DNA of 64,000 nt, from positions 17,484,001 through 17,548,000 of the forward strand of contig OX597819.1 in NCBI GenBank assembly GCA_951406725.2, given 5' to 3'. Made by a program: the position numbers and the translations under genes. This DNA is from Octopus vulgaris. Lineage: Eukaryota. The notes beneath the pieces are model-generated. The model worked only from the letters and a program-made list of their open reading frames with translations. It made no database searches and was not told where the DNA came from. This document shows positions 6,225 to 58,150 of this stretch, one piece after another (within the stretch, counting starts at the first letter, position 1; every line of letters starts with the position of its first letter).

Positions 6225-6657
6225 GTAGTAGTAGTAGTAGCAGTAGTAATAATAGTAGTTTTACCATTTATCATTATTATTACTCCTGTTACTTCTTAAA
6301 GAACACGTTCAGTCATTTATTTTGGGAAGCTCCAAAGGATGGCGACGCCGTCGCCATTTACTACATCCTCTGCATGGTGACTGCACCACTTACCATGGGA
6401 TTTAATTTTGTACTATTTACAAGCATTCCAATGAATGTGCTGATTTGAAGCTAATACGACTGTCTGTAAATCACAAATGTTCGTGGATACTGAAACTACA
6501 TATACCTGAAGATTGTGATAAGCTTGAAAGTACTTGTAATATCACAACATGTAATACAGTAAAACTAGAAAATGTACAAAAATAAAGTATTTTTCGCAAA
6601 ACTGAGACTGCGGTGGAATTTCAATGACTAATATATTTATCTCTGCAGAATAATGCA

Positions 6658-6713
<56 letters not shown>

Positions 6714-7265
6714 TGCATTAGTCTGCAGAGATACATACATACATACATACATACATACATACATACATACATACATACATACATACATACATACTTACAT
6801 ACATACTTACATACATACTTACATACATACTTACATACATGCTTACATATATATACATACATACATACATACATACATACATACATACATGCATACTTAC
6901 ATACATACTTACATACATACTTACATACATACTTACATACATGCTTACATATATATATATATGTAAGCATGTATGTAAGTATGTATGTAAGTATGTATGT
7001 AAGTATGTATGTAAGTATGCATGTATGTATGTATGTATGTATGTATGTATGTATGTATGTATGTATGAATGTGTGTATGTGTGTGTGTTTTGTGTTAGAT
7101 AAAAGGATGGATATAGGAAGTATAAAGGGAAATATGAGAATAGAAAGTATGAATATATGTAGGATGTTACAAATGCAGTTCCTTATATTCAACCCTACTA
7201 TTTCCCTCTAGTTATCTTTCTCATATCGTCTCTGATGGAGCGATAAGACTACCGTTCTCTTTATA
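4828..7265. repeat. Local imperfect tandem duplication
   Basis: 4828-5188 recurs at 6254-6620 (offset about 1426) and 5579-5786 recurs at 7057-7265, both near-identical by eye. Confidence 0.9.
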
Positions 7266-16854: not shown

Positions 16855-17150
16855 TTAGATTGGTGTTCAGTTATATCGAACAGGCTGCTAACCGACAACT
16901 ATTCACAGGCGCGGTCCCACTACCGCTCGACACGGGGCCTTTTGCCTGCTGCGTTTCCGCCCTGGGCCGAAGCGACCCTCCTTAGACAACCTGGTCCTGA
17001 TGAGCTCCCTCTCCAGCACCATATTGATGCCGAGCTTAGCGCGGACACCCGATCGCCATAGAAGACCGACTACCAGGACTCCCATCCTCAAACCGGTCAA
17101 CCAACCAAGCCTCCGAGTAGCTAGATTACAGGAGCACGCCACAACTCCCA

Positions 17151-17152
<2 letters not shown>
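16855..17152 (-). ncRNA. 7SL: 7SL (SRP) RNA, full length 298 nt, probably a retroposed copy
   Basis: Minus strand begins GCTGGGAGTTGTGGCGTGCTCCTGTAATCTAGCTACTCGGAGGCT (Alu domain). It contains CGATCGGGTGTCCGCGCTAAGCTCGGCATCAATATGGTG, helix-8 CCCAGGGCGGAAACGCAGCAGG and GTAGTGGGACCGCGCCTGTGAATAG, all colinear with metazoan 7SL. Confidence 0.96.
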
Positions 17153-28761: not shown

Positions 28762-29166
28762 ATGTTTTCCAGAGGCTAAATAACCGTAACATCGTCCTTG
28801 TATACGACTGTAATATTATGTTGGCAAATAAAATTTACTGTTCGGTACTGTTGCCGTATATTTCTCGCTCACAGATTTAAAACAAGTTGGTTTTTCTCTT
28901 TACGAGATCAGCAACCGTGTGTCGTTTAAAAAATATATATAGTAATTGTTGCAACTGGAGGGAGCCTTCATCATTATCCGGTGATTGTCTCACACTGAGG
29001 ACGGGTGGCTACCCAGAAACATAGAGGTCTGTGAGTATTACGTAAGGCTACAGATGAGAGCGATGCCTCCCCATACATATAATACACGGGCAGAAACTGT
29101 GTGCCAGTAGCCAAGTGGAAAAGATGTTTTCCTGGGGCTAAATAACAGTAACATCGTCCTTGTATA
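28762..29166 (+). mobile_element. Retrozyme-like 362-bp monomer with 43-bp direct terminal redundancy
   Basis: 28762-28804 is repeated at 29124-29166. Internal hammerhead, no ORF, (TA)n flanks. Confidence 0.75.
28989..29035 (+). ncRNA. Type I hammerhead ribozyme
   Basis: CTCACA-CTGAGGA-C-GGGT-ggct-ACCC-A-GAAAC-atagag-GTC-TGTGAG. Predicted cleavage after 29029. Confidence 0.8.
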
Positions 29167-35125: not shown

Positions 35126-35184
35126 TATATATATATATATATATATATAGTGTGTATATATATATATAGTGTGTCTATATATAT

Positions 35185-35641
35185 ATAGTGTGTCTATAGT
35201 CAGCTGGAGGAGATACCTTCCTGGGGCTACAAACTACAGTAGCATCCACCCTTAGGGGTTAGCCATATTCAAATGGCAAATATACGTCACGATGTGTTAC
35301 CGCTACTGTTTATAACTCGCTCTGAGATTTATCATTGTTTGATTTCACTTTCTCAATATCAGTGTCAATCGACACTGGAAAAAGTATATGTATTTGTGAA
35401 GGGAGCTGACTTCTCGTCGACAACCATGATTGTCACACGCTGATGATAGGTAAACACCTTGAAACTCGAGTCCGTGTGTATCATGAGTTGAAGACGGGGA
35501 GGATGACTTCCCTTCACAAATACTGAGAGGGCACAGATAGTGTGTCTATAGCCAGCTGGAGGAGATACCTTCCTGGGGCTACAAACTACAGTAGCATCCA
35601 CCCTTAGGGGTTAGCCATATTTAAATGGCAAATATGCGTCA

Positions 35642-35645
<4 letters not shown>
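35185..35645 (+). mobile_element. Retrozyme-like 352-bp monomer with about 109-bp direct terminal redundancy
   Basis: 35185-35293 is repeated at 35537-35645 (offset 352, few mismatches). Hammerhead at the apex of a long hairpin, (TA)n flanks. Confidence 0.85.
35434..35478 (+). ncRNA. Type I hammerhead ribozyme with palindromic stem III
   Basis: CACACG-CTGATGA-T-AGGT-aaac-ACCT-T-GAAAC-TCGA-GTC-CGTGTG. The stem III region ACTCGAGT is self-complementary. Predicted cleavage after 35472. Confidence 0.88.
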
Positions 35646-35681
<36 letters not shown>

Positions 35682-35721
35682 ATATATATATCGTGACGCA
35701 TATTTGCCATTTATATATATT

Positions 35722-40583: not shown

Positions 40584-40717
<134 letters not shown>

Positions 40718-40744
40718 TATTATTATTATTATTATTGTGCTGCG

Positions 40745-42400
40745 AAATGCTGATGTCAGCTGAAGAGATACGTGACGTGTTGGCTAATTGCACGAGGGAA
40801 AAGTCTCCGGTATTGGATGGCGTTCCCTTCGAGCTTTATATTCATATGCCAGACTTGTTTGATGAGCTTTTGGTAGATGTCTACCGCAACTGGCAGCAGG
40901 ACGGGAAAATCCCCATATCTGTAAGCCGAATTTTGGTGACGCTACTGAGAAAGGATTCGATCAAGGGGAATATTATTGATAACTTTAGGCCTGTAGCTCT
41001 GCTAAATGCAGATTACAAAATCTTGGCCAAGTTGTTAGCAAAGAGGTTGGCGCTTGTTACCAGACTTGTCGGTGGTGTGCAGACTTGCACATCACCGATA
41101 ACAGATCTATATGCGACAAATTCCACCTCACACAATACATCATAGGGTGGTCTGGTAAAGAACCTGGCATGGATGAGGCCCTGATCAATTTGGATCAATC
41201 GAAAGCCTTCGATGGAGTCGACCATAAGTACTTGGAGGCTGACCTTAAGGCAGCTGGTTTCGGCCCCGTTTTCAGAGCCTGAATCGCTGCAAAGTACGAC
41301 ATCTGCTCGGTGATCAAAATAAATGACCGCCTATCAGAATTCTTTAGCATCGCACGTTCCGTCCGTTAAAGATGCCCACTCTCACCCCTTCTCTATGTAT
41401 TGATTTCGTTCCATTACTGCAGAAGCTGGATGTTTCGAGGGGTATCCCGCCTGAGATAGGATGCGGAAAGTTCGTGTTGGCGTGTGCGGACGACGTCACC
41501 GTGATAGTGTCAGATGTCTCGGAAATCGAGATGGTCGGCACTACCCTAAGGGCATACGAAACAGTGACAGGTGCAATGATTAACCAGGAGAAGTCAGTGG
41601 GTCTGCAGCTCTGCACCTGGAGAGGCAGGTCCATGCCAACCAACAGCGTTGTGGGGTGTGAACGGAAGGACCAGTCAAGTTGCTCTGCTTCGGTCCGGAC
41701 CTTTAAGTGAACAACTGGGGTGAGGTGACAGACACGGTGGTCAGTCTCATTCAGAAGTGGGCCGGGGGTGTCAAATGCGTACAAGGCATCTGTCAGTTAC
41801 TACTGTCTGACTGTCGTCCTTTGCCCCGCTTCGTGGCTGAACGGATTGGTGCGCTTGCTCTTTCGCTTCCTGTAGAAGGGACAGGTACCGCTTGTCAGCC
41901 GGTCCATTTGCTGTCAGTACTCGCTGCATAAGGACGGGCAAGACATGCGCTGAGGCTGCAACAGCTCCAGCGATGCCTTAATGGTGAGCAGATGTGGTCG
42001 CCGTTTGTTTGACGCGCTCTTGCGGTGCTCGTCTCCTTGACAGAGCTGCAATCCTGGATCAGGAGTAGACTGAAGCAGGGCGCTTGGCACCTAGAGTATC
42101 TCTAAGTGCTCACAGCCCTCAGCCGGTCGGGCAATGCGGTTGGTGAAAGTTCCACCTTGGAGCTCTATAGCGGATTAGAGGAGGATAAGTGCGACGATGT
42201 TCTTGGAGAGGTTCTGGGCGCCGTGAGGGATCTACTGGCTGGTCTATTCCGGAGGATTTTCAAGCCGGGACCTATGGAAAACTTCCAAATCCCTGGCCTG
42301 GCAGTGCTACCGGGGATCTCAGCTGGTTCGGGATAAGCTCCACATGTACGGGTGTGCAGTCAGATGATCTTTTCAGAGACGCACGCTGAGCGATGAAACT
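40745..42400 (+). mobile_element. Decayed L1/Tx1-like LINE reverse transcriptase
   Basis: Frameshifted RT motifs KSPVLDGVPFELY, NFRPVALLNADYKILAKLLAKRL, LDQSKAFDGVDH, ACADDVTV (YADD site) and GAMINQEKS. Confidence 0.85.
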
Positions 42401-53926: not shown

Positions 53927-53962
53927 TATTATTATTATTATTTTAGTAATATTAAATTTCTA

Positions 53963-54355
53963 AATGTCTCAAAGAGACATGAGCGGTGGTGGAGCGATAG
54001 AGAGGTTGTATACTGTCAACATAACTTGACAGTCCCGTAAGGGAATTACATCACCGCTATTTAGCCCTAGGAATCGTCGACGAAATTTAATATTTCTAAT
54101 TACGGTGACCAGTGAATAGATTTCACTGTAAATATGTATATTTGCGAAGGGTAGATAGGCATCTCAACCAGCAGGTCTCACTATTCTGGGCTGATGATGG
54201 GTTAAGACCCAGAAACATGCATGTCCTCAGGTGTGAATCCTAGCTGGTGGGGGATGCTTGCCTCCCCTTCGCAAATATAAGGACACAGGAAATGTGTCAA
54301 AGCTGACAGGAAGCGTCGATGCTTCCTAGGGCTAAACAGTTGACTGTATACAACC
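53963..54355 (+). mobile_element. Retrozyme-like element copy with inverted partial duplication
   Basis: Same hairpin/hammerhead/hairpin order as the 35.2 kb copy. TTTAGCCCTAGGAA (54060-73) is the reverse complement of 54323-36, and 54004-20 of 54339-55 (1 mismatch). Confidence 0.75.
54186..54230 (+). ncRNA. Type I hammerhead ribozyme with palindromic stem III
   Basis: CTGGG-CTGATGA-TGGGT-taag-ACCCA-GAAAC-ATGCAT-GTC-CTCAG. ACATGCATGT is self-complementary. Predicted cleavage after 54225. Confidence 0.9.
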
Positions 54356-54388
<33 letters not shown>

Positions 54389-57317: not shown

Positions 57318-58150
57318 GTGTGGAAGATAATTTAAAAATAAAAGTAATTAAAGAATTAAGAAATTAAAATCGACATAAACTTTAAATTAAAATTTTTTCA
57401 AAAAGTTAAGAAATTGAAATTGAATCAAATGATTAAAATTAAATTTAAGAAAACGAACCGAACGTGTTACAGGAAGAATGTTTTTTTTTTAGTTCAAATG
57501 GTGTCTGGGTCCGAAGAGAGATGTAGCGCTGTTGAAGGCGAAGTCTCGTGGTGGTGGATCCATGGTGTAAAGCCAAGCCGAAGACAGTGAGTCGTTCCGT
57601 GGAGTGGTTGGTAGAACGAAAATGACGGGCGACGAGGGTAATTTTATGCAGGCAGATATCCCGTAGGTATTCAGTTAACCGATCGGTTAGCCGACGGCCC
57701 GACTGACCGACATATAAAGAGTTGCAGAGGTTGCATTGGATGCAATAGATAATGTTGGAAGAGATGCAAAAGAAGGGCCCGGATGTGGATAGTGTGTTAG
57801 CTGGGTCTAGGTGATATTGATGATGAGTGGACAGGTGTGACAACGGGGTTTGGAGCTAGGGAAAGATCAAGAATTGAGCGAACTACGGACCAGTAAATCG
57901 CGTAGGTTACAGGTGAGTTTGAAGGAGGGTAGGGGCGGGTTGGGGAAACAGGGAGGGTGGTAGGATTGGATTGGAGACGAGGGAACGCCAGTAGGATTTT
58001 CCGACTAAGGGGTATGAAGGAGGGGTGGTAAAGAGGGGAAAAGGGATGTAATTGGAACATGGGTGTGGGAAAGGAGAGAGGGCAAATCAAATGGTGATGC
58101 TCAAACACGTCTGAAGTTCCATCAGACGTGCACACAAGATTTCCTACAAC
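56700..58150 (-). mobile_element. Penelope-like retroelement remnant (GIY-YIG endonuclease plus 3' pseudo-LTR with hammerhead-like motif)
   Basis: ORF 57445-57843 reads NIIYCIQCNLCNSLYVGQSGRRLTDRLTEY...VARHF. Downstream minus-strand motif CTTT-CTGACGA-A-GAG-caatg-ATC-GAAAC at about 56758-56794. Confidence 0.8.
57445..57843 (-). pseudogene. GIY-YIG endonuclease domain fragment of a Penelope-like element
   Basis: IIY...CxxC..LYVGQS.R.L..R motif. No upstream RT in frame. Confidence 0.8.

Follow-up and report, generated by a model that had tools for sequence, protein, structure and literature searches.

The repeat at 35185-35645 of the window, by which we mean the whole 64,000-nt stretch of Octopus vulgaris DNA analysed here, raises the question of what kind of mobile element it is, and from which template and by which enzyme its copies are made. 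Positions 35185-35536 form a 352-bp unit and 35537-35645 a 109-bp repeat of the unit's start, with 3 differences (97%); (TA)n flanks the copy 35185-35645 on both sides, and the longest ATG open reading frame in the unit, read head to tail, is 56 aa. Coordinates, alignment and ORF scan thus bear out the arrangement given in the initial annotation, an ORF-less unit followed by a direct repeat in (TA)n. The copy is made up of the following features.

35126-35184 (+): (TA)n target in which short pieces of the element's 5' junction recur as a stutter (from the sequence; TRF period 19)
35185-35536 (+): family A 352-bp non-coding unit (fold z -6.3)
35294-35336 (+): 43-nt "tail", bounded by the fixed 3' ends at unit positions 106 and 149 (from segment-end counts)
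35391-35522 (+): long rod hairpin with the ribozyme at its tip; base arms 35391-35404 with 35509-35522
35434-35478 (+): type I hammerhead with a short stem III and palindromic loop; predicted cut after 35472
35537-35645 (+): 109 bp of a second pass, up to the fixed 3' end without a tail (position 106)
35646-35689 (+): (TA)n target at the 3' junction (from the sequence)
35690-35712 (-): short inverted copy of the 3' end, beyond the microsatellite

The inverted copy at 35690-35712 probably arose by fold-back duplication across the (TA)n tract. At 6640-6731, 6915-6996 and 35623-35712 of the window there are palindromes with (TA)n at their centre, the flank being copied inverted across the microsatellite.

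In the descriptor scan, stem I of the hammerhead pairs 35434-35439 with 35473-35478 and is followed by the core CUGAUGA, a 4-bp stem II and GAAA; stem III is 2 bp long and closes the palindromic loop UCGA, with the predicted cut after 35472. The scan of both strands of the window gave four matches, three of which are the copy described here and its two relatives discussed below; in all three, stem I is 6 bp long, the core is intact and stem III is short. Among the best 150 of 260 Rfam rows for the window there was no hammerhead, only SRP RNA and microsatellite-driven miRNA noise, so the hammerhead call depends on the descriptor scan and on covariation. On that footing the annotated intact type I hammerhead at 35434-35478 holds as a sequence motif, and the arms claimed for the base of the long hairpin (35391-35404 and 35509-35522) were recovered in the fold, where the ribozyme sits at the tip of the rod (unit z = -6.3 against 100 shuffles). 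The window copy holds a single ribozyme and would therefore not release a monomer; it is likely a dead-end product of 1.3 passes and no source of monomers. The SRP RNA match itself is full-length and metazoan (239 bits, 16855-17152, minus strand), and its 5' end adjoins (AT)n; it may be either a gene or a retroposed copy. An A/TA-rich stretch at 35380-35392, just ahead of the rod, is kept in all three families described below and is possibly a promoter element or a site that pairs with (TA)n.

Two divergent relatives lie in the same window.

28762-29163 (+): old family B copy of 1.1 units, hammerhead at 28989-29035
53943-54082 (-): family C copy, inverted tailed arm
54082-54357 (+): family C copy, sense arm, hammerhead at 54185-54231, internal deletion near the 3' end

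The family B copy aligns across the whole family A unit (62%, E 3e-22) and ends short of its family's fixed end, and 54124-54357 aligns to the family A unit at 64% (E 3e-10). Both relatives had been said to keep the same order of hairpins. In 53963-54355, the first 120-140 bp are an inverted arm and the order is kept only from 54082.

We searched the genome assembly (2.8 Gb, 227 contigs) for exact matches to the ribozyme core shared across families and to a 32-base motif of the 3' end, and found at least 1,155 and at least 1,088, respectively, both counts being lower bounds, with none for the reversed controls. Units repeat every 347-355 bp in families A, B and C, whose consensus sequences are colinear; single copies from different families are 50-66% alike, and the families' circular folds reach z values of -6.5 to -8.9 (40 shuffles each). 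Covariation was assessed in 16 copies chosen from 99 to span the diversity. Two-sided changes occur in 28 of 69 named pairs, a value reached in none of 500 shuffles (slid structures gave 7-14), and in this set all six stem I pairs show compensatory changes; in the middle of the rod, pairing across families amounts to only 60%. Because a single family A copy supplied the structure and the copies are related to one another, these values are support and not a probability. The pattern of substitution indicates that the repeat's RNA structure is under selection. Contigs from five sequencing runs in four studies, presumed to be RNA, reach nearly all bins; they may be DNA, and their depth cannot show expression level, ends or circles. 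A further hammerhead repeat, unrelated to these families, has a period of about 466 bp, a long stem II and two arms, and likewise lies in (TA)n (L088 2037-2884; L242 6706, minus strand).

By sequence, the repeat has what defines a non-LTR retrozyme: a hammerhead in each unit, a non-coding unit within 150-450 bp, a self-paired fold and no LTR. Tandems of at least two ribozymes are found in the family, not in the window copy; they occur in only 2 of 63 unselected loci, and family arrays reach 2-9 units.

The ends of the copies show how they are inserted. Our end sample consisted of the first listed matches to the 3' motif on contig C1 and the start of C2, not selected by length and anchored on the motif ending at position 106; it comprised 64 loci (63 after one duplicate was dropped) and 105 segments. 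Family A 3' ends fall at position 106 in 46 segments and at 147-153 in 41 (87/105 together). The 5' ends are spread out, and the majority of segments do not reach the length of a full unit. In 30 loci found with a whole-unit query, the same two 3' ends were present. Counted in nucleotides after the cut, the fixed ends lie at 173 and 216 in family A, 168 and 222-228 in family B, and 173 and 225-231 in family C, and those of B and C fall at columns homologous to A. The 43-nt tail would then sit between two reverse-transcription start sites. Most ends adjoin (TA)n (69/92). A T stands at position 104 in 33 of 68 terminal passes and in 3 of 129 internal ones, which would follow if the junction is made of TA bases from the target. 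Three large public runs, filed under three organism labels and one of them perhaps the assembly's own source, also contain loose ends at 35290/35293 and 35336, most of which continue into TA-rich sequence.

Inverted insertions are especially regular. Pooling our samples gave 54 of them. In 44, the two arms stop at different points, 106 for one and 149 for its partner; a single insertion is tailed on both arms and another on neither, and the remaining eight have an end elsewhere and are unclassifiable, so that one tailed arm is joined to one untailed arm in 44 of the 46 classifiable cases. Towards the 5' side, stops are enriched at the 3' arm of the rod (22 vs 8.3 expected, p = 6e-5). Of the 36 segments that extend to the predicted cut site, 33 cross it. 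An early impression of a 5'-end pile-up at the ribozyme cut was rejected, with 3 stops vs 4.0 expected in the unselected sample. One short copy (L048 1464-1586) lies in non-microsatellite DNA between 10-bp direct repeats resembling a target-site duplication.

Copy phases are therefore not random, and the pattern of two fixed ends is the Penelope pattern: fixed 3' ends, an optional tail at one end, 5' truncation, partial tandems, inverted arms and a microsatellite target. The differing start points that had been read as a sign of rolling are actually 5' truncations and inversions of copies whose 3' ends are fixed at two sites. The initial annotation had also set fixed ends with an attached Penelope ORF against its own reading; the ends proved fixed, and such attachment was not seen in the copies inspected.

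This end pattern largely rules out a satellite or SINE-like sequence that merely carries the hammerhead along while DNA recombination or a LINE disperses it, an origin to which we give a very slim chance. Signs of local amplification in arrays L160 and L342 would agree with it; dispersal of the copies, the two fixed internal 3' ends, the one-tail rule and the covariation speak against it. No A box or B box match, tRNA or poly(A) was present in the unit, and the repeat accordingly lacks the Pol III boxes or small-RNA head of a tRNA- or 7SL-derived SINE. Open frames that resemble, by eye, pieces of a LINE-type reverse transcriptase (RT) lie at 40717-41710 (+) of the window.

We then compared the repeat with the Penelope elements of the genome. 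A GIY-YIG endonuclease fragment of a Neptune/Nematis-type Penelope is present at 57445-57855 (-) of the window; this fragment, PF01541 and the RT of element N4 seeded the searches, which cover top-scoring matches only. Among the Penelope loci sampled there are about eight families that combine an RT and a GIY-YIG domain with a CX4CxxC linker, which marks Neptune/Nematis according to the available text of PMC8557442. Elements N1-N4, which were read to their ends, terminate in (TA)n and have a small hammerhead-like motif ahead of the terminus; the tails measure 38 nt in N3 and 32 nt in N4. N4 is very young, with 138 of the 141 matches listed being 100% identical over 272 aa, and all nine inverted N4 insertions fetched have exactly one tailed arm. 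The one-tail rule common to the repeat and N4, together with the fixed ends and (TA)n, implies that the repeat inserts as Penelope elements do. N4 (L241, L263, L281-L308) has a 775-aa ORF and more than 130 identical matches and occurs in tandem arrays of about 4.27 kb and in inverted pairs; it is a candidate for the helper enzyme. In N3 (L234 800-2200, L238 800-2500) an open frame precedes the 781-aa RT-endonuclease ORF, which suggests a two-frame element of Neptune type; a PDB search with the N3 protein gave no match.

No sequence shared with the repeat was found in the roughly eight autonomous families sampled in 90 Penelope loci, a sample outside which rarer families and the Naiads, which target (TA)n as well, lie. 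A profile of families A, B and C matched 5 of the 90 Penelope loci, and the two that were read are separate insertions, beyond (TA)n or far downstream. Conversely, Penelope protein matches occur in 10 of 190 repeat-centred loci, and in the six read the element has its own 3' end or lies apart. Four apparent Penelope-repeat fusions (L227, L241, L138, L263) were rejected, since the partners' own ends with (TA)n, or else unrelated stretches, lie between them. These counts bear on the idea that the copies are 5'-truncated pseudo-LTRs of an autonomous Penelope outside the sample, with the 352-bp period as its terminal repeat. Every insertion mark is a Penelope mark, Xenopus retrozymes resemble pseudo-LTRs in the available text of a recent preprint (bioRxiv 10.64898/2026.07.22.740005), and our survey of autonomous families is made of top-scoring matches. 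The repeat units, however, follow one another seamlessly up to 7-9 times without an ORF, the few co-occurring Penelope sequences that were read proved separate, and neither an RT plus GIY-YIG ORF between pseudo-LTRs nor a Penelope pseudo-LTR was found among the repeat copies inspected. We regard this idea as very improbable. That the element is of retrozyme type and moved by Penelope machinery appears, in turn, highly likely, and the class assigned to it at the outset, a non-LTR retrozyme using Penelope-like enzymes, is supported by its sequence features and its insertion footprint alike.

Which template the enzyme reads can be approached by comparing units within insertions. At non-CpG sites diagnostic of subfamilies, tandem passes differ in 24 of 487 comparisons (15 at site 104) and inverted arms in 32 of 433 (17 at site 104); for random pairs the share is 41.7%. 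Searching with 786 bases, a length that selects for long copies, brought to light a young 353-nt subfamily of dispersed insertions of 2-7 units with the same two ends and (TA)n flanks. This set numbered 18 loci, or 17 without one duplicate, and its ribozyme junctions are exact in 71 of 71 cases (18 loci). In 7 of the 17 insertions, variants seen in no other of the 17 are present in every unit that covers them, and in four also in the inverted arm; 10 multimers have no such private variants and are uninformative. Substitutions confined to a single unit number 60 in 26,638 bases (0.23%), a comparison in which the assembly method could blur near-identical units. An A>G excess among private variants (3/13) was considered and is not significant.

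The presence of private variants in all units implies that one unit, its own mutations included, was multiplied at or before insertion, and rolling synthesis on a circle would account for this most simply. Of the proposal of rolling reverse transcription of a circular RNA, the repeated reading of one unit is thus backed by private variants and exact junctions, although the start-point evidence first cited for it falls away. Variants that are mosaic or shared by neighbours only were found in arrays L342, L346 and L351. The longest array seen, L160 3399-6549 (G000:C2:14086399-14089549), has nine units, no (TA)n flanks and the core variant CCGAUGA; its whole units differ by 1-10 bases and its 5'-most unit by 16-22. 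We rejected this 9-mer as proof of rolling on account of the divergent 5'-most unit, and together with the mosaic arrays it implies that local recombination or template switching also acts. Among 17 long family A copies, five stop within 10 nt of the cut at its second crossing (p = 0.016, post hoc in a length-selected set), which fits some cut linear templates.

The mosaic arrays and the second-crossing stops favour another account of the same Penelope-borne element, in which the enzyme reads either uncut linear multimers transcribed from tandem arrays or, by precise template jumps, a cut monomer, and any circles are by-products. Possible parent arrays of 6-9 units exist, and for the Anolis Penelope enzyme uncut RNA was the main substrate in vitro and ribozyme cleavage was not needed (PMC11167929, available text). 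A linear multimer would nevertheless require a separate step that multiplies one unit, given private variants in all units and both arms. It should also leave pass differences that recur among sibling insertions, and they do not (207 differences, 179 of them distinct, with site 104, a CpG site and ten pairs as exceptions). Compensatory change in all six stem I pairs, moreover, implies that cutting matters. Template jumps, as in R2, are expected to add bases at junctions; here all 71 junctions are exact, without added bases. We consider this account rather unlikely.

Our main reading is therefore that a hammerhead repeat is copied by a borrowed Neptune/Nematis-type Penelope enzyme, which would reread an RNA unit of about 352 nt, probably a circle; we put the probability of this reading at roughly 0.7. 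The cycle would begin with transcription of a locus carrying two or more ribozymes and cutting of the RNA to unit length, likely by ribozymes acting as a pair since stem III is short and palindromic. The unit would be ligated to a circle, as in known retrozymes. A Penelope protein, suggested by the footprint seen in the copies, would cut both strands of (TA)n and start synthesis at an internal RNA position, 103-106 for one strand and 149-152 for its partner. Synthesis would then pass the ribozyme junction, which the copies cross without an extra stop for up to seven units, with frequent stalling at the base of the rod. The products would be those found in the genome: copies truncated at the 5' end, partial tandems, and inverted insertions of which one of the two arms is tailed. 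For the more specific version, we see about even odds: the insertions would record a Penelope-type RT rolling round a single 353-nt, ribozyme-made circle from two internal starts, one per strand, and the repeat would be a parasite recognised by its fold and not by sequence shared with its helper.

Penelope copying of animal retrozymes from circles is a published hypothesis, for which the literature available to us holds no insertion-level evidence. The octopus family supplies evidence at that level: an end rule common to an autonomous element, private variants in all units and both arms, and exact junctions. It also points to a direct test: the RNA to use is 353 nt long, two start sites on it are predicted, and the same genome encodes very young enzymes as candidates. 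If true, the rolling-circle reading would bear out the life cycle put forward for retrozymes in 2014 and 2020 and provide Penelope insertion with a minimal circular substrate.

The kind of element is already known. The family is a new member of the non-LTR retrozymes, set apart from published families by their descriptions: it is not described in the available text of PMC7229834, whose supplement may list further invertebrate families, nor in the portions seen of the literature on octopus and cephalopod retrozymes or hammerheads, Repbase and Dfam lying outside this comparison. In giant squid 235 Rfam hammerhead hits were counted, not described (PMC6962438, available text). The seen parts of the 2026 Octopus vulgaris annotation and its supplement (PMC13282606) do not mention ribozymes; its repeat library, where the family may stand under "unknown", SINE or Penelope, lies outside the comparison.

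As described in the available text of Cervera and de la Pena (2020, PMC7229834), metazoan non-LTR retrozymes measure 350-390 bp in mussel and 330/350 bp in axolotl, the latter with a palindromic stem III. The octopus repeat has in common with them its size, the lack of an ORF, one type I hammerhead per unit, tandem units, GC under 50%, a compact fold and Penelope elements in the same genome. That text covers no cephalopod family. The octopus copies are mostly shorter than a unit and scattered through (TA)n tracts, and they have tails, inverted arms and two fixed ends, which are not described there; for the metazoan retrozymes, cleavage and circles were demonstrated, whereas the octopus family is known here from sequence. 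The Penelope link was proposed in PMC7229834 and PMC4209133 and, to judge from the available text, was argued by phylogeny for vertebrates by Li, Clavereau and Pollet (2026, bioRxiv 10.64898/2026.07.22.740005), in whose sample, without molluscs, one of nine retrozyme dimers cleaved in vitro. Mobilisation by Penelope machinery is thus proposed for the vertebrate retrozymes as for the octopus repeat. The vertebrate link is one of co-occurrence and pseudo-LTR similarity, with local tandem growth discussed, whereas the octopus link is the insertion footprint; here no pseudo-LTR similarity was found, and the multimers are dispersed fresh insertions.

The closest likeness in mode of insertion is to Penelope elements themselves. 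For Poseidon of Anolis it was shown in vitro that the Penelope protein cuts and extends both strands, and two internal start sites bound the tail (Frangieh 2024, PMC11167929, available text). From the parts seen of this work and of Craig 2021 (PMC8557442), the octopus repeat shares with Penelope two internal starts bounding a tail, extension of both strands, an AT-rich or (TA)n target, an inverted 5'-truncated arm and a tail at one end. It differs in having no protein, a tail of 43-59 nt vs 30-40, and a full hammerhead with a 6-bp stem I in a long rod vs a minimal one. Chlamys MRC1, as covered in the same parts of Craig 2021 (PMC8557442), is like the octopus repeat non-coding, head-to-tail and Penelope-dependent. 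Non-autonomous Chlamys elements have a 3' end that resembles the one of the autonomous partner, and hammerheads are missing from most Chlamys, whereas the octopus repeat has a hammerhead and no detected similarity to a partner.
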